Shown: positions 22,528-44,989 of the stretch, piece after piece | Position numbering within the stretch: position 1 is the first letter of the stretch | How the letters are laid out: the number at the start of each line of letters is the position of its first letter | Translations under genes and position numbers: made by a program | Assembly: GCA_964016885.1 (NCBI GenBank) | Contig: OZ024743.1 | Location: 258,540,001-258,604,000, forward strand | Reading direction: 5' to 3' | Origin: Eledone cirrhosa | Taxonomy: Eukaryota | DNA length: 64,000 nucleotides | The notes under the pieces: model-generated | What the model was told of the DNA's origin: nothing | The model's input: the letters and a program-made list of their open reading frames with translations, nothing else | The model's database searches: none

Positions 22528-22890
22528 TATAAATTACACAATAATCAAAACTATGTTCAAAACATTTTATTGCTGACAATCGTTTCTTCCAAACTTTTGT
22601 TTGGAATCATCGGAACACTAGCAAAGTTTGGACATATAATTAACTTGGACATAAAGTTTGGACATATAATTAAGTTAATTATATGCCCAAACTTTGCTAG
22701 AGCTCCGATGTTTCCAAACAAAAGTTTGGAAGAAACGATTGTCCTCAATAAAATGTTTTGAACATAGTTTTGATTATTGTGTAATTTATATTCCTGCTTT
22801 GTAAAACATCTGATGTATTTACATTGAGCTATTTTTCTTACTGGTAATAAGGTAGTAATAAATTACTGACCTTTCCTGTTTATAGTTGTA
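22528..22890. mobile_element. Fold-back PLE pLTR cassette (arms 22528-22646 and 22672-22790)
   Basis: ~119-bp inverted arms; 22800-22885 matches the rc of 1055-1143 (3' end of the first Penelope). Confidence 0.85.
22571..22617 (-). ncRNA. Hammerhead motif (CCGATGA core); degenerate mirror copy at 22701-22747 (+)
   Basis: rc: tgtt-CCGATGA-ttccaaac aaaa gtttggaa-GAAA-cgattg-TC-agca, AATAAA overlapping the stem end. Confidence 0.72.
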
Positions 22891-24468
22891 TATAATGTAT
22901 ACATAATTATAAATAATATTAATATTATTATTATAAATGTATGTATGCATTTATGTATATATATGTCAGGTCGCTCTTCAGCACTTCTGGTAACATGTAA
23001 CCCTGTACAATCTGTGCATGGTCAGGTCGTCAGCGACTAAACTGGCAACCCCACCAAGCTTGCATGGTGAGGAGGGAAAATTTGGGCACACTACAGGATG
23101 AAAAACAAAACCCATCAAAAGGCAGAGGAATTCAGGAGAGTCAATGGCCATCCAATCAAATTTTTTTTTTTCCTTGTGGAGAGAGAGACTCCTAGTCTTC
23201 ATTAAGACATCTTTCTAGGGGAAGATCACTCTGATATAAAACCTGCGACTTCATTTGCATCCAATGATGTAGACTAGTACTTCTTTTTGGGTAAAAGCAT
23301 TCGATGTTTAGAGAGTGGGATTAAAAAAGCATCAAGCACAGGCATCACTTGATATGTGACATTTTTTACAATACATGGTATTGTTGGCCATAGCAGGACT
23401 AAAAAGACACATGCACGATGCTCATGCTTAAGTATCAAGTGTTGGCATTATTGCATACATATATGTATGTAGGTACACATACATATATATATAGATGTGT
23501 GTTGGGTGTAGCAAAACTAAGGCGAGAGATTTTAACTTTTTCCCCCAGTTGACTACATAGATCATTGCAACCACAGATGCTGACCGTTTGGCCCTATAGA
23601 TAAGCAATTCATCTCGTTCTGTACTCAATGAATTTTACTTCCTTTGTTTTGGGATTTATGTCTCCAAATTGTTTAGAGAAATGGTTTTTTAGAGGCCATC
23701 TGCTTATTATCAGAAGATATCATCATTCTCATAAATATTGACATTGGCTGTCCTGGGTTCTGGTCTTTTTGGGCCAGCAAGCTAAGACATTCATTCTCCC
23801 ATTCAGCTTCCAGCAAAGGTTAGTTACATTCAACTTTTAAGACTGCTACAACACGCATCCCTGCTAAACCATCACATAAACATTATACACAATTTTACTA
23901 TGACTGTTTGTTGTTTTTCCTATGTTATCACAATTACTTCGAAGCAAGTTATTGCTAAATAAAATTATTAGAGTTGCGGCTTTGTTATTGTTGATTCACT
24001 ACTTGCTATGTCAACCATACATCTCAAATCAGAGACAACCAGCCAATCTAATCAACAATACAACTACACACATTTGATCAACTAACTAACAAAATTATAA
24101 TGTCACTACATTTGATGACCCTAATGAATGAACATACCTTCTGATGTTGAGGAGATGGAACTGTCTGTTTTTCCAATTTCTTTTTTGTGCCATTGTCTTT
24201 GTCTTGTGCACCCCACTGTTTTGAATTCATATTCTAAAAACTTAGCCATGCAGGCTTTTTTTAAACTATCATATAATATATATATATATATAAATATATA
24301 TAAAAAAGAAAATTTCACTCTACATGGTTGAATAAATGTAATCTGAGTTTTTCGAATATTAATAATAACATTCAATTCGTTTGCAATTATGCAAACAAGC
24401 TTCAATTTTATAGCCATGTTAGTAGAATGAACACTTCATTCTTGCTCTTATGTTGGCATGCGAACAGA

Positions 24469-24514
24469 ACTGCAGACACTAATGTTTCTGGGTATCACCC
24501 TTCATCAGTACAGC
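24469..24514 (-). ncRNA. Type I hammerhead, canonical core, GUC site
   Basis: rc: gctgta-CTGATGA-agggt gat accca-GAAA-cattagtg-TC-tgcagt. Confidence 0.82.
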
Positions 24515-25175
24515 TCACTGTTCACCTGCCAAACTGTCAGAGCTAGTGGAAATATATGCTATTTTCAAAAATACACAGTGACTGATCGACCTGATTTGTA
24601 TATTAGCAGACTGGCTGATCAGTCAGATCTGCATATTAGCAGATCCATTGATCAGCCATATTTGCATATCAGCAGACTGGCCTGTCAGTTTCCTGAATAC
24701 AAGTGATAAAAGGCCGGCTTTGCCAAATTCAAATAAAAAAGAAAATTTCACTCTACATGGCTGAATTCGTTTGCAATTATGCAAACAAGCCTCAATTTTA
24801 TAGCCATGTCAGTAGAATGAACCCTTAATTATTGTTCTTATGTTGGCATGTGAATAGAACTGCAGACAGTAATGTTTCGAATGTTATTATTAATATTTGA
24901 AAAACTCAGATTACATTTATTGTATTCAGCCATGTAGAGCGAAATTTTCTTTTTTATTTGAATTTGGCAAAGCCGGCCATTTATCGCTCGTATTCAGGAA
25001 ACTGATAGGCCAGTCTGCTGATATGCAAATCTGGCTGATCAATGGATCTGCTAATATGCAGATCTGACTGATCAGCCAGTCTGCTAATATACAAATCAGG
25101 TCGATCAGTCACTGTGTATTTTTGAAAATAGCATATATTTCCACTAACTCTGACAGTTTGGCAGGTGAACAATGA

Positions 25176-25221
25176 GCTGTACTGATGAAGCGTGATACCC
25201 AGAAACATTAGTGTCTGCAGT
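25176..25221 (+). ncRNA. Type I hammerhead, mirror copy
   Basis: gctgta-CTGATGA-agcgtgataccca-GAAA-cattagtg-TC-tgcagt. Confidence 0.78.
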
Positions 25222-25470
25222 TCTGTTCGCATGCCAACATAAGAGCAAGAATGAAGTGTTCATTCTACTGACATGGCTATAAAATTGAGGCTCGTTTGCA
25301 TAATTGCAAATGAATCGAATGTTATTATTAATATTCGAAAAACTCAGATTACATTTGAATATATATATATATATATATTGTTATGCTTTGGGAGGGTCAT
25401 GTTGCCAACAAATTCAGAAACGAATATATATATATCATCATCGTTTAATGTCAGTCTTCCATGGAAATAT

Positions 25471-25767
25471 GTTTAGAAAGTGATGAATGGACTTTGAAAA
25501 TTGAAATAAAAGACTTTGTCATAACCTTTTGACTAAATAAAATAGCCCAATAATAATTGGATGTATAAATAAACTGAACAGAAAAAGATAGGCATCAACA
25601 CATACACATCGGAGTTGAACCGACAGCTCTTGTTTCCCAAATAAGTATGTTACCATTATGCCTATAATTCCACCCATCTCTTTCAGTTATTTTTAGGAGC
25701 TATGACATAATAACGATATCTAAACAAAGGAAGTATTTCAATTTTCAAACTCCGCTTACTGCTTTAT

Positions 25768-25771
<4 letters not shown>
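25471..25771. repeat. Diverged inverted-repeat element enclosing a tRNA-like A/B-box segment (-)
   Basis: tttgaaaattgaaata / tatttcaattttcaaa arms; rc TAGGCATAATGGT...GGTTCAACTCC at 25611-25664. Confidence 0.5.
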
Positions 25772-25831
<60 letters not shown>

Positions 25832-27605
25832 CCACATGATCTCTTCTCTTGTTTACTTATATGATCCCATCACAGCCTCCACACTCATATAGATTGTCTC
25901 ATATTCACTTAAAGTGTAAATGCCAGAGGCTTGTGGTAAGTTTCCAATGAGACGATTGTGTCACATGTTCAATATTTTTATTGAAGCATTTCTTTTCACA
26001 TATTCTTTCTACTTGGCATTTACCACAGCACCCCTTGTTATTTTCTTATCTGACTAGAAATACCTGCCATATCTCTCTAAAGGCACATCATACTGTTAGA
26101 TTTTCAGGTAGGTTTCATCTAGAGAAACTAATGAGGATTTGAAACAGCAATTACAGCTATGGAGTAGAGAGGTTTCTTTTGGCCTACTGAGAACTCAACA
26201 ACCTCTCTTGTGTTGGTGTCAATAAAATACTCTTAGTACCTCTTGTAAAATGGTTGACATCTGAATGGAAACAGTGCAGGGTACAGAAGACTTTGTTCTT
26301 TTTGAGCACTTAACAACCTCTCTACTGTTAATGTCATGATAAAATGTACCCAGTACACTTTGTTAATTGGTTGGCAATTGAACTGAAGCAATATGAATTA
26401 CAGAGAATGCTTCAATTTGTTGAGTACATAACAAAGATTCTGTTGTTGGTGCTTCTATAAAATATATCTAGTACACTGTGTAAAATGGATTGTGATTGAA
26501 CAGTGACAATATAGGGCATAGAGGGTTCATCAACCCTGCTGAGTACATGAAAAACACTTTAGTACTGGTGCATTCTGTAAGGTGTTTGGTGTTAGGAAGG
26601 GCATCCAGACAAACAAAAATGCCAAAATATAAATCATATGAACAACTGTGGATCTCAAACCACATCTAGTGTTGGACCATAATAAATCATCCAACCTATA
26701 TTAGAATGGAAAAGCAGATGTAAAATAATCACATCGTTAATGGGATGGGGGAATGATAATGAAACAGCTTATGTTTCCATTGACTAATTGTGAGTGTATT
26801 GGATAATATCAGAGAATATAATAAGTAAAAGTCTTGGTTCTAATGGAACAATTTGCAAAGAAAAGGTTTTAGTTGAATAGTGTTGGTACATTTTTAGTTA
26901 ATGAGATAATATAGCTTATATAACGTATGTAATTAGAACCTCTAATATAGGGTTAATTTGTTAACCCTATTGTTATTCATCATGAAAGACAATTTAGATT
27001 TACCCATTAATCTTATATAAATTTCAGAAATACTGACTTTTGTTTCCTTAATCACAGCTTGTCCAATGAGAAACATTTAGAATAGTTTAAGAAAACATCA
27101 TTAAGCATTTATTTTGAAATTAGTAATTTTAAAATAGAATTATAAGTGTTTCCCCCTTTTACAGGACCTGACATGCAATTCAGTGATAATGTATATATTT
27201 TGTTGATATTTTGGCAGAGGTGAACCACTCAATAACCTCTGAAAAACTTGCAGAAAACTCTCATAACAACTATGATTAATAATTTCAAGATGTGATTTTG
27301 TTTATTAGTTCAATGTGTTGGTAACTTAATATAAATTCTGCATTTGAGTTGTACTCTTCTAGAATTATATTTCTTATTCGAATAACATCCCAGTATACAT
27401 CATGTGTGATATGTCTAATAGACAGTATTATGCAAAAAATCAATTGTTTTATAAAGTGTTGAGCAAATATGAATTTTGAAAGTATGTTAGCTTATTGTTA
27501 ACTTCTACTACACAAGCTTGACGATAAAAGATAGCCAAACAAGTTAGACATATAAATGTCTAGAAATGGAGAAAAGTGAACATTATTATTATTGTTATTA
27601 TTATT

Positions 27606-27845
27606 GAGGGTGGGAGGTAGTGGATTAGTGGAATTGTTAGAGCGGCATACAAAATATTTTGTAGCATTTAGTTATGGCCATCTACATTCTTAATACAAAT
27701 CCCACTGAAGTCGACTTTGTCTTTCATACTTCCAGATTTAATAAAATACCAGTAAAGAACTGAGGACAATGTGATCGATTTTTCTCCTCGATTTTCTGTG
27801 TATGCAAGGTCTCTGGCCTTGTGCCTTAATTAGAGATCATTATTA
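27606..27845 (+). mobile_element. tRNA-derived SINE (central domain actttgcctttcatcc..gtcgataaaataaagtaccag), decayed
   Basis: similar to 60511-60700; other decayed copies at 19625-19735(-), 28401-28605(+), 34372-34770(-, two copies), 52545-52690(+), 62000-62150(+). Confidence 0.75.
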
Positions 27846-28774
27846 TTGATGTTGTCGTTATTATTGTTGTCATCATAATCACCTTTTCCTCATTGTTTAA
27901 TCAAGCTAAATTAATGTCATGTCATATTTGTCCATTTTAAAGAAAACCTGTTTAAAGTTAGGAGAACAACATCCAATTGCAAATACAGTCATGTTCATGT
28001 TCTCATCTGCAAATATTCAAAATTTGCCAAAGCTATCCATATATAGTTAGAGCGAACAATGAATGCACTTCGTAGTACAAAGAATTCCTGACAAATCTTT
28101 ACCAATATTTTGGGAAAAATCTCTATTAATAGTCAAAACAAGATGTAAACAATATAGAGAATGCATTAAGTTCATATGGCTTTAAGGGACCATTTCTGCA
28201 ATATGCAGCAGATATTGTCAAATAAAGTAAATGAGACATATTTACTTCTATTTTTAATTAAGAATCATGAATAAGATGGATGATTTGTATTTTTTATTTT
28301 TTTATTTTTCAGTTTGAAATCACGCACACACACACACACACACACAGAAGCATGTAATCTTCCAAATTGTTATATAATTTCATTATAAACAAGTTAGTCA
28401 GGGCAGTAGATTAGCAGATTCCTTAGAGTATCAGAGAAAATGTTTTGCAGCATTTAGTTATGGCCCCTTATATTCTGAGTTCAAATCTTGCTGGGGTCAA
28501 TTTTCATGACTGTGTGGTCGATAGAATAAAGCATCGGTTATGTATGGAGTCGATATAATTGACTCCCTTCCTCAGAATTACTGGCCTGAACCAAAATTAG
28601 AAACTTAGAAACCAGTTCAGAGAAGTTGACTGATAATCGGAAATCATGTTTGTGTTTGTTCTGTTCCACAGTGGAGTTTCCTGTATGTTTGTGTACTGCC
28701 CTGTTTTACTCATGATTCCTTCCTGTTTGGGATTCAATCTATTTTCCACTCATTTCATTGTTTAATTTATGTCC

Positions 28775-29020
28775 ACTTTGTAAAGTGTTTGGTGTTAGGA
28801 AGGGCATCGAACCATAGAAACCATGTTCCCAGTACACCCTGTGAAATGGTTGGTGTTAGGAAGGGCATCCAACCATAGAAACCATGTTCCCAGTACACCC
28901 TGTGAAATGGTTGGTGTTAAGAAGGGCATCTAGCCATAGAAATCATGCTCCAAGTACACCCTGTGAAATGGTTGGTGTTAAGAAGGGCATCTAGCCATAG
29001 AAATCATGCTCCAAGTACAC
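28775..29020 (+). repeat. 61-bp tandem repeat x4 of the RTE/SINE tail motif
   Basis: agtacac recurs at 28831, 28892, 28953 and 29014; unit contains tggttggtgttaggaagggcatc. Confidence 0.9.
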
Positions 29021-29029
29021 ATTGCGGTC

Positions 29030-29753
29030 AATCATATGCGTTATTAGTGTATCACAGAGTATTGTAGTGGGAGAGGTGTATATTTATTGTTATGTTTTCA
29101 TGGATGAAGAGTACTACTCCTTGTTTCTGTATTCTGTGGTCAGTTCTGTGTAGTACATAACCTGACATGTACTTTCACATCTAATATGTGTGGATTTAAG
29201 TGTGCTTCACTTAGTGTCACATATATTGTCTTTTCTGTGTATGCAAGGTCTCTGGGATATGATATTTTGTTTGATTTGTGAAGTGTGAGAGACCTTGTAC
29301 ATTCAGCATTATTATTGAGTTTGGTTTGTTAATTAATGAGAGGAATGAAAGGTGTTTGTGACTGGTGTAATAGCAGAGGTTGATGGCGCAAGATAGCTAG
29401 ATTTCTTTTTTTTCTTTTGCCATATTCGATATGGCTTTAAAAGAATTCTTGTTGGGGGAGAGGTTGGTGTCTGGAGTTATTGTTGTGGCACTGTTAGACA
29501 TTGTTATGTCTATAGATATGTTTGTATTTGTTGGTTTTATTTTTGTACCCAGTGGTGACTCTTCAGGGCAAGTCCAGACCAGCACTGCGACTGCAATGGA
29601 TGTTTTTACTGTGGATTTGATACTGGCTTGGAATCATGTTTTTAACAGTGTGTTGATTCCTTGGAAGATGAGTGAAGGTACAATCAGGCGTACAATGAGG
29701 GAGAGGGGGAGGATTGGTTCTTCACTAACTGGTGTGATAGAAGTCATAACAGC

Positions 29754-29794
<41 letters not shown>

Positions 29795-29900
29795 AAGAAA
29801 ATGATGAAAATGATGGTGGTGGGTCTTTTGTGGGACCTGTGAATGTGAGGTGTGTGAATAGCTGGGATAGGAAGAAAAGCTGGTGATTGTGCCATGTCAT
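29030..29900 (-). pseudogene. Possible highly decayed LINE 5' coding region (Thr-rich stretch plus APE-like remnant)
   Basis: MLNVQGL... and SGYVLHRTD-like motifs with many stops; (GTA)n at 29753-29793. Confidence 0.35.
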
Positions 29901-30090
29901 TTAATAATTGTTTCTACTTTTTGGCACAAGGCCAGCAATTACCCAGTGCATTACTGGTACTTTATTTTATCGACCCCGTAAGAATGAAAGGCAAAGTTAA
30001 CCTCGGCGGGATTTGAACTCAGACCATAAAGGGCCGTAACTCTATGCGTCAAAGCATGGCGTCCGACCCTCTACCGATACTGCCAATCCA
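29901..30090 (-). mobile_element. tRNA-derived SINE, well preserved
   Basis: rc TGGCAGTATCGGTAG (A-box), GAGTTCAAATCCC (B-box), central domain, tail agaaacaattattaa. Confidence 0.88.
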
Positions 30091-30284
30091 GTTGTGCTAG
30101 TATTGAGAGATGGTTGTGGCTGAGGTTTTTGTTATTGCTATGTCTGTTGTTACTACTGCCACTGTTATTGTGGTGGTGGTTATTGCTGTAGTTTTGTGGT
30201 GGTGGTTATTGCTGTAGTTGATGCTGTTGTGGAGGTTGATGTGAAGTTAAAGAAAATCCATGGTGAAGTATAGATACATACATT

Positions 30285-30323
<39 letters not shown>

Positions 30324-30372
30324 AAGTGTGAAGGGTGCGTGCATGCATTATAGAATCTTGAGTTGATCAATT

Positions 30373-30543
30373 GCGTCGGTTGAAGCAAGCAGAATTTTGG
30401 CTGCTTACTAAATCGTAGACACATAAAAAGATAACACACACACAAACACACGACAGCGTCAGTTGAAGCAAGCAGAATTTTGGCTGCTTGCTAAACCGTA
30501 GACACATAAAAAGATAACACACACACACACACACAAACACACA
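30373..30543. repeat. 83-bp tandem duplication
   Basis: gcgtc(g/a)gttgaagcaagcagaattttggctgctt...acacac occurs twice. Confidence 0.85.
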
Positions 30544-30706
30544 CTAGATAACACTACATGCAGCTTTGACCTGGAGGGTCATTTAGAGGGAATTGGGGGG
30601 GGGGGTAAGGCTGCACAGCCCCACTTTCCGCCATGGCGATTGGACTGCATGCCCTGCTTTCCAGGTTACCCTTCGCCACTGATATATATATATATTTATA
30701 TATATA

Positions 30707-31972
30707 CAGGGTGCGGACGATATTTGTTCGCAAGATTACTGTCTAAGAAAAAATAACACAGTAGTTTTATTTTTTAAGATATATTTATCAAACTTAGGTC
30801 AGTTTGTCTTCATGACTTGTTCTTTCGATCTCACTCGATAAACCCGCCATTGGCTTTGATGATGGCCTCAAGGCGGCTACAAGCCTTCGTCACTGTCCCC
30901 CGACTTAGGCCCCTAAAGGCACTTGTGATTCTGGCCTTCAGATCGTCTTTCGTATTGCAGCTAGATCTGTTGGTGTCTCGTTCCACTGTGCCCCACACAA
31001 AGAAGTTGAGGGGGTTGCAGTCAGGTGAGCTAGGCCAGATGTCAGGTGAAGTGTGGTCGACGAGGTTCTCTGACAGCCAGGATTGGGTCTTTCGGCTGGT
31101 ATGGCAGGGCGATGAGTCTTGCTGCCACACGTACGGCCTACCTGGTCGATCCAGGGCTTTACTACCTCGCTCAGAATGCGGATGTAGCCATCGGTGTTCA
31201 GCTTGAAGCCCTCAGGGAAGAAGTGAGGTGGCATAATGTCACCTTGACTGCTGACGACACCTAAGACTAATGTTGTCGCTGGAAACTTTGTCTGCATGAC
31301 TCTGGGCACGTCTTTGGATGAGACAGGGAGCCACCTGTTGTTTTGGGAGATCTTCTGGTCTTGGCAGAAGTTTTTCTCATCGGAGAAAAACCACAGCATG
31401 TCTGGCTCCAGTGGGTGTTTCAACTTGTTGATCAGCTTCTTTTTGTGCTTCAGTTGCATCGCCTTTGACAGAAATTGTCCTTTCCTCATCTTGTATGAAA
31501 CGTAACGAATATCTTCATGTACCACCAGCCTAATTAGCTTTTCATCCACGCCTTTCTCCCTTGCAATGGCATGCATCGACTTGCTAGGTTCATTGTTGAT
31601 GATATCCTGAACTTCAGTGACAAACTCGGGCGTTCTGAAGGCATCAGATCATCGATCATGTGTTTTCCTCTCTGATGTTGCTTCGTAGTTGAATCCTGAA
31701 TCTTCCAATTCCTTTCTGACCTTTTCCACCATTCTCCTGCTGACGCTGAGAAAGTCTGAAATTTCATTATTTGTCCTCCTGGCGTGGATTCCAAGAAGAA
31801 CTCTGAGTCTCTTCCACAAATTTGGAGGTTCAAAATTATTGATAAAAATTATTCTGAAAATAAATAATGGAAATATAGTCGCTGTTTTTATGAAGACAAG
31901 AGTGACAACAGAAGTAAAAAAAATTTGCATAAAATTAGCAGTTGAAAATTGCGAACAAATATCGTCCACATC

Positions 31973-31975
<3 letters not shown>
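30707..31975 (-). mobile_element. Tc1/mariner DD37D (maT) transposon, near full length, frameshifted
   Basis: TIRs CAGGGTGCGGACGATATTTGTTCGCAA, TA flanks; WFFSDEKNF, WQQDSSPCH, SPDCNPL. Confidence 0.93.
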
Positions 31976-32051
<76 letters not shown>

Positions 32052-32054
<3 letters not shown>

Positions 32055-32095
32055 GGTGTGAACGATATTTGTTCGCAATTTTCAACTGCTAATTT
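32052..32095 (+). mobile_element. Isolated 44-bp left end of the same maT element
   Basis: cagggtgtgaacgatatttgttcgcaattttcaactgctaattt is the rc of 31932-31975, across a (TA)n tract. Confidence 0.85.
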
Positions 32096-32170
32096 ATATA
32101 TATATATATATATATAAACAAGATGGTGTAAAACAGAACAAAGGATAGACACAAAGAAACAACAAAAGTA

Positions 32171-32213
32171 GTCACTGAGGAGGTCACAAAATGTTTGACA
32201 AAAGAACTTTGAC
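32171..32213 (+). ncRNA. Degenerate hammerhead motif, same family as 19186-19228
   Basis: gtca-CTGAGGA-ggtcacaaaatgtttgac-AAAA-gaac-TT-tgac. Confidence 0.45.
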
Positions 32214-33149
32214 AATTAACAACTAAACTAACCGACTGAGAAATTATAATACTAAATTGAGGTGCATGTGCTTCCAGCATGACCCTCGCAGAGTATATAT
32301 ATACACACACATATGTTTATAAATACATATATATATTTGTGCGTGTGTAAAAAGTAAACAGAAATAACAAAGCAAACACAGTACATTAAAGAAATATATT
32401 AGTTTAATGCTTGAAAAATAGATAGGTTGAGAATTAACAAGACATGTAGGTTTTTGTAACAGTAATCATTTTCGGTGTCAGTAAGCTATTTAAGTGTCTT
32501 TTCTAATAATCATTATGTTAGTTTACACAACTATGTATGTAAAATTCTCTTGTCATTCCAATGTATTTAGTAACACTTTGATAAGTGGATGCTGTTTTTT
32601 TCCATGTCAGATTTGCTGTAGAAAAAGCAATTATAAAGAAATATAACATGCTTTTTTTTATATATTTTCTTTGTATCTCCACTCCCTCTGTAAATACAAA
32701 GGACAAAAACATTTCTGTATTCGTGTTTTTCTTTTCTTTCTAGAGAGTTCTAGTGCTAACAATACATCTATCAAAATTAAGGCATATGTAATTGTATATA
32801 TATATATGTATGTGTGAAGGTATGTATCTCAACTAAACAAACTCTAGGAAATATGTAATTGAAGGATTTATATACACTCTCACTTACAGTAGTATCCTGA
32901 AATTTGTATATTATTAGTGCTTATGTTGGCAGTTAATTAAGATGTATATTATGGTGTGCATTAAGCAGCCAGAGTATATGATGAATTTATCTCTAGTTGA
33001 CTTATTTATCCTTGTCAGTGGTTTCATAAATGTTAACGCATCTAACTCCTTCAGATATTTTAAAATATGTAATGGAAAAGGGAGATCCTACTATAAAACA
33101 TGATATAAAGGGCCTCCAAGCAATATGAATAGTCAAACATTACTGTTAC

Positions 33150-33610
33150 CATCAACGTAACTAAAGTTTATTTCTTAGGCATCCCTCTAGATCTCACAAC
33201 AAACAAATACAACCCCTGTAGGAAACATAATGAGGAAATTATGTATGAACTCCACCCCAAAACCTTCCCAGATATAGTTAAAAACCTTGTACACAAAATT
33301 AGTAAAGGAATCTCAATTTTATTGTCTAATTGAAGCATCTTTAACAAAGCTACACCAAGTAGTGGCTTCAAATAAATGTTAGCATACATGTAAGATCCCT
33401 GATCCACTCCAATGAGGGTTAGGGAGAGAAACATAATTTTGTTTAATCTTCCATTCAATCTAGATGCGTCCACAAATATAGCTAGTAAATTCCTGTCTTT
33501 TATTAGACAATACTTCCTAAACAAACGCAAGTACTATAAGCTCTTTAACTTCCATATTATTACGGATAACTGCTCCTGCCTAAATAGTAACACTTCCAAG
33601 CATCACATGC
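33150..33610 (+). mobile_element. Decayed Penelope-like RT thumb/linker fragment
   Basis: RNIILFNLPFNLDASTNIASKFLSFIRQYF..KYYKLFN resembles the PLE IIWFNPPF..TNIG..FL motif. Confidence 0.75.
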
Positions 33611-35337
33611 TACAAAAGAAGAAAAGATGCAACAACACAGAAAGGGTATGAAAGGGTTAAAAATTCTTACATAAAATTATAATAGGTTTTGAGATAAATA
33701 TACACACTTTGAATAAACAGCTTTATATATAGGACCAGGGATGGTTTCAGATGGTTGGTATTAAAAAAAAGTTAAAGATTCATGGGTTTAATCGAAAATA
33801 TAGAGGTATAAAGGCATCTTTTTGAGAAAATAGATTTAGCATTTTTTTTAAGTGGCTAGGAAATAATTCTTTTTCACCACATTCTCATGTGAGGATTAAT
33901 GATCTCATTCTTTCCATAACCAAATGAAGGCACTTCACTCATATTTTTAATATGTGGTTGCATGCTGCTGACATAATTTGACAAGCTGTCTACATACATC
34001 TTATCAGATTCATTGATAGGGAACAATAATATTCTTTTTAACTTTAACCCTCCCTTACCATATTTCTAATGAAAGATACTGCATATAATTTTCAAATAGC
34101 TTTGATGATAATTGAGAAATATGAGGGATTTAGTAAAATATGGTGTTTTGATCATCATAAAGATTCTTACATGGAAATATGATGGAGGGTTTTTGGATAA
34201 ATATAAAAACTTTACCCTTTTGTGACCATATTTCTGACAAGGAACTATTGTGTCAGTGTGACAATTATCCAAGTGATCAATAATTATTAGAGGGTTAGTG
34301 AAATATCTGACTTTCAACTTAATACTAAGAGACAATTTTTTAATTACTGCAATTTAATATTATCTAGCATGTAATGATTCTTTCTAACATTGACACAAGG
34401 TCAGCAATTTGGGGGAGGGGAAAGTCGCTTATATTGACCCCAGTACTTAACTGTTATTTTAATTTATCGACCCCAGAAGGAGGAAAGGTAAATTTGAACT
34501 CAAAATATAGAAATTTGTAACTAAATAGCACAAAGCATTTTGTCTGACACCCTATCAGCATTACCAATCTACCCACCCTTAATAAATATTAGTTTCTAAT
34601 TTTGGCGTATGGCCAGCAATGAAATGGAGGAAAAGTCGATTATAATGACCCCAGTACTTGAGTAGTACTTTATTTTCTCAACCTATTTATGACCTTGGCA
34701 GGATTTGAACTTAGATTGTAAAGAGCCAAAACAAATACTGCTAAACATCTGTCCAATGCTCTAATGACTAGGCCTGTTCACTAGGCCTGTACAATATTGT
34801 AGCATGTTCACAATTTTACAGAACCACTGACACCAAACTTTCACCTTACTAATGATTCCTAGCTTAGGCACAAGACCAGCAAGTTTGGGAGAAGAGAATC
34901 AATTAAATCAACCCCAAAATTTGGCTGGTATACTATTTCATCACAGTGACTGGGGCAGAGAGCATGACAGCTCTGGGTAGCCAAATCTTTCCTCCCACAC
35001 TCACCCTCACAGAGCAGAGAGGGCCCTTTAGTGGGACAATAACCAACAACATCTCTAGTACAGGTGCAATTAAAATGCATCCAGTACACACTGTAAAATG
35101 TTTGGTGAAAAGAAGGGCATCCAAACAAAAGGTTGGGAGGACCTATCAGTTGTGTCAATGATATGAAAATCTCATTAATGATGGTTTCATAATAAAACAC
35201 ACACAGTAAGATGCATGCACATATGGAAGTGGTATTTGGAGCCCCAGCCTGTCTGGGAGTCAGTAACCCAGGGAAGACCAATCTAACCTATGATAGCAGA
35301 GAAGGTGGACATCAACTTATGATGGTGATGATTATAT

Positions 35338-36562
35338 ATGAAGAAATTCCAAACTTGGAAGCAGGGACTAGAGAGAAAGGGTCTCAGGGTCAACCTGACA
35401 AAGACTATGGTCCTTGTAAGTAGACGAGAAAACAGAACCCAGATTCCCTCAGGGAAATGGCATTGCTCAGTATATAGGAAAGGTGTAGGTAGGAACTCCA
35501 TTCTCTGCCCCAAATGCAAACAATGGGTACACAAGAGATGTAGCGGGATCTCAGGAAGCTTAACTAAGAATGTAGGCTTCACATGTAGCAGCTGTGCTGG
35601 GATAGCAAGCAGCAAACAGCCACAGGAAACAAGTACCACCAAACTCTGGGAGGGCTCTGTAGAAACAGTAGACAACTTCTGCTACCTAGGTGACCGAATA
35701 AGCAGCGGAGGTGGGTGTTCAGAAAGTACAATAACTACGGTAAGAATGGGATGGAAGAAGTTCAAGGAGCTACTGCCACTGCTAGCTGCAAAAGGCTTTT
35801 TCCTCAAAATGAAAGGCAGACTGCATGATGCGTGTATATGAACAGCAATTTTACATGGTAGTGAGGCCTAGGCGCTGTCTGTGGAAGACTTGTGTAGATT
35901 TGAAAGAAATGAAGCTTGCATGCTCTGATGGATGTGTAATAGTAATATACGCGAACGGCAAAGCATAAATGAATTGAGAGAGAGACTCAGCATAAGAGGA
36001 ATCAAGTGCTGTGTGCAGGAGAGGCGGTTGCATTGGTATGGACATGTGATGCGTATGAAGGATGACAGCTGCATAAAAAGGTGCAGAGCACTAGAAGTCG
36101 ATGGAAACCGCGGAGTGGGGAGACCGAAGAAGACCTGGGATGAGGTGATAAAAGCCGACCTCACCCAATTACACCTCTCAAAGGCGATGACACATGACTG
36201 TGACCTCTGGTGTCACACAGTAATACAGAAGACCCGACCCCCCACGGGTACAAGCTGAAGCTGAAGCATATAGACAATATGCCCCCACACCTTCCCACTG
36301 CAAAGTGGTCATGGAGGTGCCATGGCAAAAAAGAACGCAGCCCACACTGTAAAGTGGACGTGTAGGCGCCACGGAAAAAAAGCACCCAGCACTCACTGTA
36401 AATGAGGTTGGTGTTAGGAAGGGCATCCAGCTGTAGAAATCAAGCCAGAATCAGTTTCCGTATCAGCAAGACAAGGTCAGCTGACCAGACACTTCCCACA
36501 ACAAGACAACCCATCTAACCCATGCTAGCGTGGAAGAATGGACATAAAACGGTGATGATGAT
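35338..36562 (+). mobile_element. RTE LINE 3' fragment with 3' UTR
   Basis: ORFs 35338..35841 and 35932..36258 are homologous to 8284..9438; gatgatgat tail. Confidence 0.92.
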
Positions 36563-36777
36563 ATAGTGAAGTGAACTTCATAAAAAATGTTATATCCAAA
36601 ATTGGTAGAACACTCAGTCTGGGTAATTAGGTTAAATTAACAATTACATCTGCCAAATATGTTTCATTGTGGAATCATTTCTGCTGCTCATCAGTCCGAC
36701 ATATATAAAATGTATGTTGACATTTCAGAAAAATTCAAATGATGTGAATTTTAACCAATTTTGTGTATATATATATA

Positions 36778-38063
36778 CAGGGTGTGGACAATATTTGTTC
36801 GCAATTTTCAACTGCTAATTTTATGCAAATTTTTTGTACTTCCGTTGTCACTCTTGTCTTCATAAAAACAGTGACTATTTCCATTATTTATTTTCAGAAT
36901 AATTGATTATGAATAATTTTGAACCTCCAAATTTGTGGAAGAGACACAGAGTTCTTCTTGGAATCCGCACCGGGAGGACAAATAAGGAAATTTCAGATTC
37001 TCAGCATCAGCAGGAGGATGGTGGAAAAGGTCAGAAGGGAATTGGAAGATTCAGGATTCGACTACGAAGCAACATCAGAGAAGAAAACACATGATTGACG
37101 ATCTAATGCCTTCAGAACACCCGAGTTCGTCGCTGAAGTTCAGGATATCATCAACAATGAACCTAGCAAGTCGATGCGTGCCATTGCAAGGGAGAATGGC
37201 GTGGATGAAAAGCTCATTAGGCTGGTGGTACATGAAGACATTCGCTACATTTCATACAAGATGAGGAAAGGGCAATTTCTGTCAAAGGCAATGCAAGAAA
37301 AGCAACTGAAGCACGCAATGAAGCTGATCAACAAGTTGAAACACCCACTGGAGCCAGACATGCTGTGGTTTTTCTCCGACAAGAAAAACTTCTGCCAAGA
37401 CCAGAAGATCAACTCCCAGAACAACAGGTGGCTTGCTGTCTCATCCAAAGACGTGCCCAGAGTCATGCAGACAAAGTTTCCAGCGACAACATTAGTCTTA
37501 GGTGTCGTCAGCAGTCAAGGTGACATTATGCCACCTCACTTCTTCCCTGAGGGCCTCAAGCTGAACACCGATGCCTACATCCGCATTCTGAGCGAGGTAG
37601 TAAAGCCCTGGATCGACCATGTAGCTGCAGGTAGGCCGTACGTGTGGCAGCAAGACTCATCGCCCTGCCATACCAGCCGAAAGGCCCAAGCCTGGCTGTC
37701 AGAGAACCTCGTCGACCACACTTCACCTGACATGTGGCCTCCCAGCTCGCCTGACTGCAACCCGCTCGATTTCTTTGTGTGGGGTGCAGTGGAACGAGAC
37801 ACCAACAGATCTAGCTGCAATACGAAAGACGATCTGAAGGCCAGAATCACAAGTGCCTTTAGGGGCCTAAGTCGTGGTCAGTGACAAAGGCCTGTAGCCG
37901 GTTCCAAGGCCCCCTTGAGGCCGTCATCAAAGCCAATGAGATCGAAAGAACAAGTGATGAAGACAAACTGACCCAAGTTTGATAAATAAATCTTAAAAAA
38001 TAAAACTACTGTGTTATTTTTTCCTAGACTGTAACCTTGCGAACAAATATTGTCCGCACCCTG
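36778..38063 (+). mobile_element. Tc1/mariner DD37D (maT) transposon, second copy
   Basis: TIRs and TA flanks; ORF 37174..37884 has 37 residues between QQD and NPLD. Confidence 0.94.
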
Positions 38064-38139
38064 TATATATAATTTTTTCGTAATGAAAAAATATTTTTCT
38101 TTGATAGCAAGGCTCTCATATGTTTATTGTATATAAACA

Positions 38140-38830
38140 TATAGGATATGCTTTCATATACACCCCTCTTCCCAGTCCTTCTGCAGACATGTCTGGAAAT
38201 TTGCCAATACTGCCTTCAGCTCCTGTATTGATTAAAATGTAATCCCCTTAACATTGTCTTTCTTGTGTTGAGACAGGAAGAAGTCATAAAAAGCCAAGCT
38301 AAGGCTGTAAGGTGGGTGTTGTTCCACTTTCATTTCTCTGTTGATCATCCAAGTGGTCATTAGCATTGACTTGTGGCATTGTCTTGATTAAACCAATACT
38401 TTCCACTGCTCCACTGCTGTGTCCTATTTTTTCTCATCCGCTTCCTGAACCATTTTCAAAACTTAAAGGTAATATGCCTTATTGATGGTTTGCCTCTCAG
38501 AAACCCATTCAACATGAATTAACTCCTGGGAGTCAAAGAAAGAAATTACTATGGGCTTCTCTTGTGACCTGCTCTTCTTTACTTTCTTGGGCCTGAGTGA
38601 GGACATGTGCTTCCACTGGGCACTTTGGTGTTTGTCCTTAGGGTCATAATTGACTACCCAACTCTTGTTGTAAGTCATTACTTGATTCGGAAAACCAGAA
38701 TCAACCTCTTTCATATGGAGAATCTTGGTGTAACATTTCTTACAAAGCTGCCTCTGGTTGTTAGAGAGGATCTTTTGCATGGCACAGATTTTGTGTAGAT
38801 CCAGATCTTTGGTCAGAATTTTATCCTGTC
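38140..38830 (-). mobile_element. Decayed mariner transposase
   Basis: SWVVNYDP..QSAQW...SFFD and HPPYS..LA.YDFFL. Confidence 0.8.
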
Positions 38831-38989
38831 AAACAAGTGTTATATTGTTCTTAATCAGGAAAGCTTAGATTCTATAGGCAGAATGAGTGAGTGCATTCTT
38901 GTGGAGAAGTTGACAATTTTCGCTGCCCACATATCTGACCGCTTTCAATGCACAGCATCACAACGGTGACCTATAACCTCTAGGTAGTA

Positions 38990-39825
38990 TTTTTTTGTTA
39001 TTGTTTGGCCTTGCGGTATGTATAATGCACAATACCATGAGAGTCAAATAAACAGGTCAACATTTCCTTCACATTGCTGTGAACCTGTTGTGCTTTTTTT
39101 AATCTTGGTGATGACAGATGCTTCCATTGGGAGGACTTGAACTTGGTTTCTGGTTCGTAACCATAAACCCATTTGTCATCACCAGTGATGATGGTCTTCA
39201 TGAAGTTTGGGTCATGGCTTGTACAGTCGAGCATGTCCTGAGTGATTTCCTTGCAGTGTTACTCATGCTTCTCTGCTAGCATCTTGGGAACTAATTTTAC
39301 CAACACTTTCCACTGCACAATTCCTCCATTAAAATGTGCTTATTCCCACTTCATAAACAATTTTTTGGATTGTTACACGATTCTCTTTCATGACTATTTG
39401 CCAAAGCTTCTTAATTAGCTCTTCGTTTTGGTTTGTGGATGGCCTGCTTGAGCATGTTTCACTCTCCACTGAGGTGTAGCCATGTTTGAAGCCGTTGTAC
39501 CACTCATTGATCTGTGTTTTGCCCAAAGGTCTGCCAAGTCTTCTGGATAGTTTTAGCTTGAGTGTCACCAAGCTTTTGGCAAAGCTTGATAAAATATTTC
39601 TGCTTGATATATTCGGTCAGCTTGCGTGAAAATGAAAATCCAATGAACACACACTATATGTTGGTCCACTAGGCATAACAGCTGGGGACTGATGCAGATT
39701 ACCAGTGTAAAAATCTTCACACATGTGCAGAAAGAGTGTCATCATCTTCCACCCAAATTATTTTTCCCAGCGGCATTAGTTTTGAGGAGAAAAAAATATA
39801 GTTGGATACTTTCTGAACACATCTC
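38990..39825 (-). mobile_element. Decayed mariner element, 5' half
   Basis: IITGDDKWVYGYEPETK..SQWK..MLTCLFDSHGIVH; TIR-like rc gagatgtgttcagaaagtatccaac at ~39801-39825. Confidence 0.85.
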
Positions 39826-39924
39826 AGTCAGGATTTTAAATATCTCTTTCTATATATATACATATATTTACACATCTACACACAGCACATTTATATATGT
39901 ATGTGTATATATATATATATATAA

Positions 39925-40220
39925 AGGGTAAATGACCATGGGAATTGCAAATAGAAAGTTCCCCTCTGAGACAAAAGCCCAAGAAAGGTATTTTTTATGA
40001 AAGACCTGCAGTCATCGATGCATACCAGTCCCCCCTCTCAAAATTACTGATGTTGTCTAAGGGGAAGACAATGGCTGATGCAGTTTAGCACTAGTGACAC
40101 AGCAACTCATTTCTACAGCTAATTGAACAGGAGTAAAGTATCATGCTCAAGGACAAAACACACCGCCAGGTCTAGGAATTGAACTCACAACTCTCTGACC
40201 ACTAAGCTGCATATCTTCAC
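39925..40220 (-). mobile_element. tRNA-derived CORE-like SINE
   Basis: rc GAGTTCAATTCC B-box followed by tgtccttgagcatgatacttt. Confidence 0.65.
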
Positions 40221-40221
40221 C

Positions 40222-40257
<36 letters not shown>

Positions 40258-40502
40258 TATATCATCATCATCATCATTGTTTAATGTCCATTTTCCACGC
40301 TACCATGGGGTAGATGAGTTGTCCCATTAGAAGCAAGTTGGATCAGGTGATCATGTCTTGCTCATATAGAACTGTTTCTGGCTAGGTTTCTACAGCTGTA
40401 TGCCCTTCTTAACATCACCCACACTTACTGTGTGTGCTGGGTGCTTTTTGTCATGACTCCTACATGACCACTTTATAGTGAGTGCTGGGTGCTTTTTGTT
40501 GT

Positions 40503-40548
<46 letters not shown>

Positions 40549-40701
40549 GAAACACACAGATACATGCGGACACACACATATACATGAATGCATCCACACC
40601 AAACCGCGAGTTAAGGGTGCCAACCTCACCGATGTTGCTCAATGAATGACTGGGACAGACCAATCCGGTTGAACCAGACTGAACCAGTATCAGAGTTAAA
40701 A

Positions 40702-41107
40702 ATACATTATGAAGAGAGAAGGAACATTTAGATATAATTAGTAATAAAATGTATCATACCTAAACTGCTCCTAGATTCCTCGACTACGTAGTTTCGTGGC
40801 ATAAACAAAAACAATACATCATAAAGATATAGAGTCCTTGCGAGCTCTGTTTCTCGACCGTTATATCGCGTGACTATCTCCCCCTCCGCCTTTTGGGATT
40901 CTTTCTCACGTCGTGTAGACGCGTTCTTGAGGCTAGTAAAATGAGGTATCCTCTTGATAAGTCGGCAGACCTCGCAAGGACTCTATATCTTTATGATGTA
41001 TTGTTTTTGTTTATGCCACGAAACTACGTAGTCGAGGAATCTAGGAGCAGTTTAGGTATGATACATTTTATTACTAATTATATCTAAATGTTCCTTCTCT
41101 CTTCATA

Positions 41108-41112
<5 letters not shown>
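40702..41112. mobile_element. Fold-back HHR cassette (arms ~40702-40849 and ~40966-41112)
   Basis: near-perfect ~145-bp inverted arms, followed by (TA)n. Confidence 0.88.
40949..41038 (+). ncRNA. Hammerhead with U3-A8 covariant core and long stem II insert
   Basis: tcctc-TTGATAA-gt(c)ggca...tgccac-GAAA-ctacgtag-TC-gagga; ACTACGTAGT is palindromic. Confidence 0.75.
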
Positions 41113-41153
<41 letters not shown>

Positions 41154-41295
41154 TAGGTAGTATGGTGAAATACTGGTGTTGGTACCATAACTCCTATGGG
41201 CCACCTTGAGCCAATCCTCTGTGAAATGCACGTAACAGGCCAATACAATAAATATTATTTTTCATATGTAAACGAAATTTTTTCGTTTTTTCTAC

Positions 41296-41329
<34 letters not shown>

Positions 41330-41408
41330 AGTTTATCCCGGGTTGAATTGGGGGTAACCACAGTAAGTAAGGTACTCAATACAAAGCAGAGTATAAATAT
41401 TAATATAG

Positions 41409-41467
41409 AAATGGCTTCCTGATGATTTCTCCTGAATGAAACAGTTCTAGTCCTGTAGAAGCCATTT
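41409..41467 (+). ncRNA. Hammerhead, canonical core, 10-bp stem I
   Basis: aaatggcttc-CTGATGA-tttc tcct gaat-GAAA-cag ttctagtc ctg-TA-gaagccattt. Confidence 0.82.
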
Positions 41468-41472
41468 ATATA

Positions 41473-41511
<39 letters not shown>

Positions 41512-41518
<7 letters not shown>

Positions 41519-41760
41519 TGTACTAAACAACATAAGGCAATTATTCCATTTACTAGTGGTTTCTTAAAAGCAAAAAATTTTGCTTTCAATCCTCAGAATG
41601 AAAAAATCTGAGGATTGAAAGCAAATTTCTTTGCTTTTAAGAAACCACTGGTTAATAGAATAATTGCCTTATGTTGTTTATTACATAACTATTAAGCTCT
41701 GTTACCTACATAGAGCACTCTTTTTTCCTGGACTTTTCCGACGGAATTACTTCATTCACA
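41512..41760. mobile_element. Fold-back HHR cassette (arms 41512-41598 and 41606-41692)
   Basis: inverted arms with a 7-nt spacer, TA tracts on both sides. Confidence 0.85.
41545..41602 (-). ncRNA. Hammerhead, canonical core; mirror copy 41608-41653 (+) has a damaged stem I
   Basis: rc: ttcatt-CTGAGGA-ttgaaagcaaa attt tttgcttttaa-GAAA-ccactag-TA-aatgga. Confidence 0.78.
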
Positions 41761-41828
41761 CATATATATATATATATATATTAATGAAAAAGAACAAAGG
41801 AACTATTATGACATTATAACAAGTTTAT

Positions 41829-41875
41829 TGCCGACAGCCGTTTCGTCCGACCATATGGTGGGACTTTTCAAGGCA
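41829..41875 (-). ncRNA. Hammerhead with U3-A8 covariant core, GUC site
   Basis: rc: tgcc-TTGAAAA-gtcccacc atat ggtcggac-GAAA-cggctg-TC-ggca, AATAAA overlapping the stem end. Confidence 0.82.
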
Positions 41876-42087
41876 TATAACATGTGATATACATACATAC
41901 ATATACAAATACAAATATATTCATTTTACTAAGGCTAAATAATAAGTCTTCTTACTCTTGAGTTTCACTTAGGTAAAACTAGAGAGTGCCAAAACTCACT
42001 ATTTAGCCTTACTAAACTAAATATTATAATTCTACTTCAGTATTTAGTACTCTTTTCTCTCAACCATCAACTACATACAGATATATG

Positions 42088-42119
<32 letters not shown>

Positions 42120-42609
42120 ACACACACACACACACATATTATAATTGTATGTGTATCATTATGCTCTATTATATTATATCTTATTATTGCTATTGTGTAC
42201 TGTTATCACCAAATTTACTGTATATTTACTCTCATATTATTATCGTTATGTTAGATATGATTGTTAGTTATTTATATTGTTTAGGAATCAATATTTTAAC
42301 TTGAGTTTCAAAGAAATGTTATTGTGATAAATACATAACAATCAAGTTTATTGAATTGAATTCAATAATTGAATAAAATAATATAGAAAACTAAAAACAT
42401 GATTGTATCTACCTTGCAGGCAAACCAATTCTTAGAAGCACCATGCTTCAACAGAATATCTCTAAATACTATTAGGAAGAAAATTGGTTTCATCCCTCTA
42501 TCTACTTCCCCTTCTCACTCTCTCATACTCACTCTCTCTCTCCCTTTATATATATATATATATATATAGCTGTTTCTCTAGCAATATTTGTATATGTTCA
42601 TGTGTGTAT

Positions 42610-43770
42610 ATCATCATCATCATCATCATCCTTTTTACGTCCGTTTTCCATCCTTACATGGGTTGGATGGGTCTTTTTAAACACAGCTTTTTTTCATCAT
42701 CTCCTCTGCCAGCCTCAGAGATTTGAGGTCAACCCTTGCCCAGGTCTTTCTCAGTCTACCTCTACTGCGGCTTCCATTAAAGAGCATTTCCTGGCACATC
42801 TTCACCCATCAATCATGTGCATCACATGTCCATACTAAAGCAGTCTTCTCTCTTCGAAACCACCTTGGATTCCTCTTAAACCCAGCTTCTCCTTCAGTTC
42901 ATCTAAGCTCTGCCTTTCTCTCACATTTACATTATACATCCAACAAAGCATGGCTGCTTCCTTTCTCTCCAGTCTATGCATGTCTTCTGCAGTCACTAGT
43001 CACGTTTCTCTATTATGCAGTAGTGCACTTTGCATGCAGGTGTCATATACATCATATGTATGGTGAAACCTTTTGTTGTCAACAGTGGGCATAGCTCTCT
43101 AAACTTCATCCATCCTGCCCTTATTCTAACCATTATGCTGTCAGAGTTTGTGAACGTTCCTCATAGAACCTTTCCTTTTGGTTTTTACTTAGTCCTGTCT
43201 GTGGAGCATAGGTAGATGTAATTGTCACCATTTTTTCTACAGCTATTCTAAGCTTGATGATTCTGTCACTTACCCTAACTATTTCTATCACCTTATTTAT
43301 CCATTTCACAGCTAGTAAGATGCCACACCTCCTACACCATTGTCATTACCTACCCAATAGAGATTACATCTCTGTTGTTTGCCTGTGATTAGTCTCGCTC
43401 AGACTCCCCTCCATCTCATCACTTGCACACAACATACATCTACTTCTTTTATCCCAAACAGTTCCACAATTTCACCTGATTTACCTTTCATGCTGCCAAT
43501 GTTGAGGGTCGCAGTCCTGAGATTTGTACCTTGATAGTTGTTATTTCCTTGGGTTGAGATTCTATGTACCTGAAAGAGAAAAAGGCTGTGCGATTGCTTG
43601 ATGACAGTTGAATGGTTCTCACACATGGCTACTTGAGCCACCCCACTACCGAGCATGGTACTAACATGATTAGTGTTAGCCCTGTATCTCCAATTAGTGA
43701 AAATCGTATTTGTGCTTGTCATATTTTGGGAGGGTTTTTCTGACTGGATGCCCTTCCTATCACCAACCAC
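42610..43770 (-). mobile_element. RTE LINE with large internal deletion (same family as 10455-12925)
   Basis: LRTATLNIGSMKGKSGEIVE..VDVCCVQ joined near 43150-43190 to the RT 3' end and (GAT)n tail. Confidence 0.85.
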
Positions 43771-43829
43771 TTTACAGCACTAGACAGGTTGTCTTACTGG
43801 ACTCAAGAGTACTCTCCACCCTATATCGG

Positions 43830-44060
43830 TTTTTATTTGGAGTGTCTACTCTCCTAGATAGGTTGCCTTCACTTCAGCTTATAGAGCCATACGTCTGCCA
43901 CTTGCAGTCCTTTTTAATCAGGGTCACTGCCCTCCTAGACAGGTTACTTTCACTAGAGCTTACAGAGTCCACGTCTACCCAGTGCAGTTATTTTTAATCA
44001 GAGTCACTGCCCTCTTAGGCTTGTACCTTCACTATAGCTTGCAGAGTACATGTCTTCCTC
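43830..44060. repeat. ~81-bp degenerate tandem repeat x3 upstream of the RTE
   Basis: recurring tttttaatcag.gtcactgccctc.tag...ttcact..agctt.cagagt. Confidence 0.7.
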
Positions 44061-44591
44061 GTTATCATAATCTTACCTTACTTGGGACAGCAGCAAATAG
44101 TAGAGTAGCAATATACTTTGGTGATGTCAAAGAGAGTGAGTGAAGAAAGCAATGGACACGGAAATGAGGGGTATATAAGGTAATTTCAGATAAATTATTT
44201 AACTGGAAGGTGGGGGATAGGATGTGGGAGGGTGGGATGCAGAAACGTCCATGAAGTAAGCAAATAAATTCTAGAAGGAAAATAAATTCAAGACAGAAAA
44301 AGTAAGCAACGCAGGAGATGACCATGAAGTAAGGAAATAAATTTAAGGTGGAAAAAACAGAGAAAGAAATTTTACTGAATGGAGTAATTAATTCAACATA
44401 TAGGTAGAAATAAGAAAAAGGAAACTTATCTTTCCTTCATAGGTAGAAATATGAAGATGTATCTTGCCTGCCATATCTGAATAGCGTGCACCCCATTTAG
44501 TAGTGGCCGGTTTGTTTAGAGTAACTGAGATCGGGAATGAGGGGAGGAGAAGAGAGAGAGAGAGAGGGAGACATAGATCCACGAAGTTAAG

Positions 44592-44628
<37 letters not shown>

Positions 44629-44631
<3 letters not shown>

Positions 44632-44984
44632 CAAGAAAGTAAGTGTTGGTAAAATCCAGTACTTCAGTATGCGGATAGGGAGCACTCAACGAAGATATAA
44701 GTTCCGGAGTTATAATAGTGACGAAACATAAGTCAATTGCATGAACTCATAATCCTTTATTTACTGCTATATATATATTTTGATGATAGCCATTGAATGG
44801 CTATGACCTCATTAGGCAGTTAGTCAGTTCTTAGATATGCCAACTCTGTGTTTATAGTGTTGATAGTATCAGAGCCTTGGGACATATGATGAGGTCATAG
44901 TCATGCAATGGCTATCATCGAAATATATATAGCAGTAAATAAAGGATTATGAGTTCATGCAATTGACTTATGTTTCGTCACTAT
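44629..44984. mobile_element. Fold-back HHR cassette (arms ~44715-44812 and ~44889-44984)
   Basis: inverted arms, TA tracts on both sides. Confidence 0.85.
44763..44820 (-). ncRNA. Hammerhead motif, mutated; the mirror copy 44886-44936 (+) retains TGATGA and GAAA
   Basis: rc: actgc-CTAATGA-ggtcatagccat tca atggctatcatc-AAAA-tatatata-TA-gcagt-aaataaa. Confidence 0.65.
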
Positions 44985-44989
44985 ATATA

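Follow-up and report, generated by a model that had tools for sequence, protein, structure and literature searches.

The 64,000-nucleotide stretch of Eledone cirrhosa DNA analyzed here (contig OZ024743.1, positions 258,540,001 to 258,604,000; hereafter the window) contains five inverted-repeat cassettes, A to E, each carrying a hammerhead ribozyme (HHR) near the point where its two arms meet and each abutting TA tracts. This arrangement raises the question of what such cassettes are and whether the ribozyme determines where the inversion occurs. The five cassettes are inverted 3' ends of Penelope-like elements (PLEs) inserted in (TA)n, and not miniature inverted-repeat transposable elements (MITEs). 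In these insertions, two complementary DNAs (cDNAs) made on one RNA are probably joined head-to-head, and a minority of them stop at the predicted HHR cut, self-cleaved RNA being probably one class of template. The shape of the cassettes is already known; the footprint at the cut site and the rule that only one arm bears a tail are the parts of interest.

Families, sampling and coordinates

The genome comprises 3.0 Gb in 1796 contigs; the window has a GC content of 36.6% and many TA tracts. Exact patterns of 20-28 nt from the 3' ends have, genome-wide, 415 matches for A, 4671 for B, 3900 for C, 5739 for D and 3140 for E. Coordinate zero is the non-tail 3' end of each family, that is, window position 22790 (A), 25356 (B), 41112 (C), 41695 (D) or 44984 (E), and on this scale the HHR cuts are predicted after -47 (A), -141 (B), -79 (C), -42 (D) and -53 (E). 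Since the initial DNA searches (A, C, D and E) were biased by the HHR in the query, the tests use instead pattern matches 3' of the cut, taken in positional order along contig C1. The resulting genomic sample of 30 loci per family and 140 fetched regions covers nearly all of the 100 matches listed per family for B and C, slightly more than half for A and D and about one third for E. Clusters less than 84% identical to the reference copy were removed, as were two duplicates; the junctions kept number 16 for A, 48 for B, 30 for C, 15 for D and 2 for E. Thus, E is represented by two inversions; genome-wide probing of ends covered B, C and D.

The cassettes belong to Penelope-like elements

Copies of these families have fixed 3' ends, variable 5' truncations and partial tandems. 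The inverted 5'-truncated partner and the tail by which PLEs are recognized were both found, for E in two cassettes. The coding evidence covers family D: at two loci (L427 and L429) a broken open reading frame (ORF) is enclosed by inverted D arms lying 4-6 kb apart. The L427 ORF has 1688 homologues, and the top ones, of about 700 aa, show by eye reverse transcriptase (RT) motifs, a Cys linker and GIY-YIG at the C terminus, as in canonical endonuclease-containing (EN+) PLEs (PMC8557442). The Cys-rich linker between RT and EN, seen by eye in the D homologues, is one criterion for Neptune/Nematis, placement in the RT tree being the other. Pfam assigned no family to the L427 ORF or to four of its homologues, and a DNA search with the family D tail gave zero matches.

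B and C are arrayed in tandem, with unit lengths of 438 and 592 nt, respectively, several units at most, an HHR in each unit and a non-coding appearance; the C unit is also present in contigs of three sequencing runs, a result that concerns presence only. Judging from their sequences, B and C would fit non-LTR retrozymes. Indeed, tandem HHR units and insertions longer than one unit are features of metazoan non-LTR retrozymes and non-autonomous PLE derivatives (PMC7229834; bioRxiv 10.64898/2026.07.22.740005). Unlike typical retrozymes of about 300 nt, the B and C units are longer and display the full PLE anatomy with tail and inversion.

The palindromic shape and the TA flanks could also suggest DNA-transposon MITEs with terminal inverted repeats. 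However, the inner boundaries vary over hundreds of bases, the outer ends are asymmetric, many copies consist of a single arm, and the families include tandem units as well as an RT ORF; fixed terminal inverted repeats or symmetric ends were not found in the sampled copies. We therefore rejected MITE identity, to which we give practically no chance, and the first, sequence-only reading of this DNA was right to regard the cassettes as retro-products; the fixed-repeat alternative that it had named is contradicted by the same variable ends. The flanks being (TA)n, a target-site duplication is unreadable.

All five families carry a minimal type I HHR, recognized with a descriptor or by eye; its core (C3-A9, G12-A14, NUH17) is accompanied by stems I and II, and stem III is short. 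The core of C has the U3-A8 variant, which is documented for PLE ribozymes (PMC4209133), and that of A has a C at position 4. Predicted RNA folds show stems I and II in A, B and C; a single fold at L129, which did not show the ribozyme of D, is left out of account. Rfam reported no hammerhead at E≤1 across the window, nor at E≤10 on two short stretches; the HHR calls come from the descriptor and from reading by eye.

Two arms, one tail

Among the classifiable inverted pairs of B, C and D, the tail is present on one arm and absent from the other in 118 of 121 cases (36 unclassifiable pairs were set aside and one C insertion was counted twice). For A, a tail on one arm was seen in 24 of 28 pairs and a tail on both arms in none. 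In addition, the non-tail arm extends further 5', without any tail sequence, in 38 of 142 pairs. Since such an arm is longer at its 5' side and lacks the tail, neither arm could have been copied from the other. Together, the one-sided tail and the non-copyable arms argue for two cDNAs joined head-to-head rather than for a fold-back. A pure fold-back origin, which the sequence-only reading had proposed, was thus rejected.

The two arms nevertheless share their haplotype. Variant sites agree between arms at 129 of 132 positions in C (0.60 for random pairs), 178 of 198 in D, 195 of 219 in A and 260 of 334 in B, far above random. At the junctions, microhomology of at least 2 nt was found in 80 of the 130 ungapped cases, compared with 14-19% by chance on a slightly generous measure, and inserts are present at 54 junctions. 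Identical junctions are repeated inside one locus at L476, at L480, at G000:C13:5075634-5076094 and at G000:C3:52376764-52377241, showing that finished cassettes are sometimes re-duplicated.

The arms could alternatively be separate insertions into one TA tract, or products of later rearrangements, homogenized by gene conversion. Families do accumulate in the same tracts (A, C and B adjoin in L345), and some cassettes have been duplicated again (L476/L480). On the other hand, the arms meet 5'-to-5' with microhomology and no TA in between, and a strict one-tail rule is unexpected from independent insertions, which makes this explanation highly improbable.

The joining of two cDNAs probably proceeds as follows. 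Nicks on both target strands would prime RT at two start sites on the RNA, one for the tail arm and one for the non-tail arm, giving two cDNAs, each with its own target strand and start site and both likely from the same RNA molecule. Their 3' ends would then be joined by microhomology, so that the junction would lie wherever each cDNA had stopped. Self-cleaved RNA would set a limit on cDNA length, with a stop at the predicted cut in a minority of cases, and uncut multimeric or circular RNA would give the longer and multi-unit arms. A comparable scheme is described for PAc Poseidon in vitro, where RT begins at two sites bounding the tail and both strands of AT-rich targets are cut and extended (PMC11167929).

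Two families have an excess of insertion ends at the predicted cut

Ends were scored over the whole genome with probes in which element sequence is preceded by two non-reference letters; rows explained by SNPs or indels were discarded by eye. In B, true ends are infrequent 5' of the cut (3 of 6 rows at -149, about 7 of 39 at -146 and 5 of 12 at -143) and frequent from the cut 3'-ward (39 of 52 at -141, 46 of 57 at -140, about 29 of 44 at -138 and 36 of 55 at -135). This corresponds to an approximately 6-fold step in 5' ends across the predicted scissile bond (p ~1e-14, -141 excluded). At -140, about 30 of the 46 rows adjoin antisense B sequence, as classed by eye.

In C, 13 of 14 rows are true ends at -78 (about 10 of them independent), compared with 1 at -84 and 3 at -72 (p=0.004); this peak represents an estimated ~1% of all C ends. 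The arm ended exactly at -78 in all 10 of the loci with this end that were fetched, and in L477 both arms did so. Furthermore, the partner end lies within the span of the cut RNA (-78..+164 of the unit) in 9 of 9 alignable loci (7-8 independent), as against 35% of partner ends in the general C sample. The end excess at the cut site in B and C is likely to record self-cutting of the ribozyme in living cells, as far as genomic sequence can tell.

Several observations weigh against cleaved RNA as a template. A CTGCAG palindrome spans the B cut and inflates -141, where about 12 symmetric junctions lie, and in B the cut does not limit both arms jointly (21 of 68, with 19 expected). The C peak was judged against two control positions only, and end rows were classed by eye. 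D shows no step at its cut, with about 13 of 17 rows at -41 and 10 of the 100 rows listed (103 in all) at -46. At the level of the sample, no enrichment at the cut was seen in A (1 of 32 ends), D (1 of 30) or C (one end). PAc elements with mutated HHRs inserted normally in vitro and no RNA reads ended at the PAc cut (PMC11167929). As for a single RNA molecule behind both arms, conversion between arms could also yield shared haplotypes.

Ends at the cut could in principle arise by pausing of RT at the folded ribozyme, or from transcription starting there, instead of cleavage. Stem I and the stretch beyond it, 3' of the cut, do hold many B ends, and promoters are described in the pseudo-long terminal repeats of PLEs (PMC6765202). 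However, the C ends fall on the single base 3' of C17, which is the 5' edge of the 3' strand of stem I, whereas a stop at a structure would be expected at the 3' edge of that strand; -72 yielded three rows. The register is identical in two unrelated families, B and C, and the partner arms of C are limited to the cut RNA as well. We regard pausing or initiation as an unlikely source of these ends and retain cleavage as the probable one. In searches of open-licence literature, which left out several key PLE papers and supplements, no account of PLE 5' ends lying at an HHR cut came up.

Most junctions lie elsewhere

Junctions generally fall outside the cut site, and the cut-site class is a minority (about 23% of B junctions and about 1% of C ends). 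The sequence-only reading had held that the ribozyme sets the point of fold-back or template switch in such cassettes generally, and had suggested plotting the breakpoints relative to the cleavage site. When this was done, the 60 C ends were uniform over the unit (Kolmogorov-Smirnov p=0.5), the outcome that it had named as refuting, with 8 inside the HHR and 8.6 expected. In B, 11 of 96 junction ends lie in -143..-136 (p=4e-4 against 60-nt flanks), that is, in 11 of 48 junctions, and an independent sample of 20 junctions gave 5 of 40 ends. When all D loci are taken together, symmetric junctions number 10 of 30, and 8 of these lie at -126..-138 beside the palindrome TTTTAAAA, which is about 40-50 nt upstream of the HHR core and outside the HHR; half of these loci had been retrieved with a query that included the HHR. 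The ends of E are concentrated at -170, the point at which ATAT abuts the TA target, with 14 of 31 solo ends in a single 20-nt bin. Many E copies (L301-L356) are exactly 170 nt between TA tracts and could be either a short non-autonomous subfamily or the result of recurrent ATAT microhomology with the target.

The looser criterion of that first reading, in which either arm end lies between 30 nt upstream of stem I and the cut, is passed by 7 of 16 junctions in A, 23 of 48 in B (about 15 expected), 11 of 30 in C (uniform expectation about 11) and 12 of 15 in D. Position in or beside the HHR therefore beats chance weakly and, at these rates, it is not very surprising that the five chosen cassettes have a boundary near the HHR. 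A general role of the ribozyme is in keeping with the B excess, with all five window boundaries lying no more than ~35 nt from the HHR, with two D junctions (L433 and L436) at the stem II hairpin and with short snap-back additions at the B cut end. It is countered by the uniform C ends, by the D and E hot spots away from the HHR, by the one-sided tail on arms that cannot be copied from each other, and by the HHR-less Naiads, which also invert (PMC8557442). We thus consider it very unlikely as a rule; what stands is that the cut end probably forms the 5' end of one arm in a minority of B and C insertions. In about eight B copies, internal deletions between short repeats remove the ribozyme partly or wholly, as if RT had jumped the hairpin.

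The five window cassettes

The arms of A lie at 22528-22646/22672-22790, those of B at 24334-24766/24924-25356 and those of C at 40697-40849/40966-41118; self-BLAST placed cassette D at 41512-41692 and cassette E at 44711-44989. Read against their families, they consist of the following parts.

22528..22646, minus strand: family A inverted arm, tail-less; HHR core CCGATGA at 22613, predicted cut 22575
22647..22671, no strand: A junction insert of 25 nt, mostly a local duplicate of arm sequence
22672..22920, plus strand: family A direct arm (to 22790) and 3' tail of at least 130 nt; HHR at ~22698-22750, predicted cut after 22743
24292..24878, minus strand: family B inverted arm; tail of ~40 nt at 24292-24333; 5' end at -153 (GAAA); HHR core 24508; internal jump from -41 to +3
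24871..25363, plus strand: family B direct arm, tail-less, more than one unit of 438 nt; HHR core 25182, predicted cut after 25215
40546..40852, minus strand: family C inverted arm with a 164-nt tail; 5' end at -140, within a long stem II insertion
40846..41113, plus strand: family C direct arm (592-nt unit family), tail-less; U3-A8 HHR core 40954, predicted cut after 41033
41512..41607, minus strand: family D inverted arm, tail-less; HHR core 41596
41607..41754, plus strand: family D direct arm, tail of ~60 nt; core 41608, with the cut predicted after 41653; forms the 3' end of an RT/GIY-YIG PLE
44630..44889, minus strand: family E inverted arm with an 86-nt tail; 5' end at -171, the ATAT hot spot of the family; HHR core 44815
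44887..44984, plus strand: family E direct arm, tail-less, 5' start within the core; predicted cut after 44931

Each cassette has two breakpoints: -118/-118 in A (with the 25-nt locally templated insert), -153/-40 in B, -140/-267 in C, -98/-87 in D and -171/-96 in E. The sequence-only reading had stated that the arm boundary tracks the HHR in all five. Its arms, ribozymes and positions are correct, but it left out the second breakpoint of each cassette, and none of the 10 arm ends lies at a predicted cut, the distances being 12-188 nt. The inverted E arm ends at the -170 hot spot of its family. The TA tracts that it noted flank the cassettes of the window as described and, among the sampled junction cassettes, occur on both sides in 24 of 30 for C and 20 of 48 for B.

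An HHR-bearing inverted pair that the earlier reading had not listed is present at 1169-1294/3529-3654; its boundary precedes the core by about 69 nt. Its arms are 2.2 kb apart, carry an HHR each and are about 72% like family A; the pair is likely a larger PLE with an inverted 5' partner. In seven further inverted pairs of the window, no HHR was found with the descriptor.

Some other details of the window deserve mention. Within cassette B (24765-24923), the first segment of the inverted arm stops at -41 and the direct arm begins at -40, which suggests an extra template switch or a local inversion. A separate, well-formed type I hammerhead of another family, with a stem I of 8-10 bp and a longer stem III, lies at 41412-41468 (plus strand), one TA tract upstream of cassette D. 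By eye, a hammerhead-like motif with a U3-A8 core is seen in a short TA-flanked insert at ~41820-41865 (minus strand). Finally, at 44716-44745 (plus strand) the antisense of the E 3' end resembles a second hammerhead's 3' half (GAAAC..GTC); a 5' core to match it is lacking, and the likeness may be due to chance.

Relation to known systems and significance

PLEs are known to target microsatellites and to have inverted truncated partners and a tail on one side, and this extends to the HHR-less Naiads. As in canonical EN+ PLEs, the partner is 5'-truncated, the tail stands at one end, the target is (TA)n and the HHR is near the 3' end; unlike them, the tails are about 40-164 nt instead of 30-40 nt, and the one-tail rule is counted here (118/121) (PMC8557442). 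Unlike PAc, for which cleavage was dispensable and left no RNA ends (PMC11167929), two of the present families show an accumulation of genomic ends at the predicted cut. The HDV-like ribozyme of R2 is similar in that its cut defines the template's 5' end, with junctions formed afterwards by chance microhomology; R2 is a long interspersed nuclear element with a 5'-terminal ribozyme resembling that of hepatitis delta virus (HDV), whereas the hammerhead is internal here and a minority of copies is affected (PMC3774820).

Head-to-head joining of cDNAs has a further counterpart. In L1 twin priming, two cDNAs primed on both target strands are joined by microhomology, resulting in an inversion. The non-overlapping arms of L471-L473 resemble this process, whereas most arms described here overlap in sequence and begin at two fixed sites.

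The role of the hammerhead in EN+ PLEs has been called unclear (PMC8557442), and PLE hammerheads were without in vivo evidence at their first description (PMC4209133). Insertion ends that are over-represented precisely at the predicted cut, along with partner arms that stay within the span of the cut RNA, constitute indirect in vivo evidence and name the exact bases for a test; the near-absolute one-tail rule, in turn, constrains how PLE inversions form. We lean, with some reserve, towards a broader proposal, in which the 5' ends of PLE-mobilized copies would be a nucleotide-exact fossil record of in vivo HHR cleavage: an RT-endonuclease dimer would prime on both strands and copy one RNA from two fixed sites, cleaved RNA would be a real template, and end histograms would rank active ribozymes (B strongly, C weakly, D not). 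If this is true, such histograms would rank genomic ribozyme activity and settle cleaved RNA as a template of retrotransposition.

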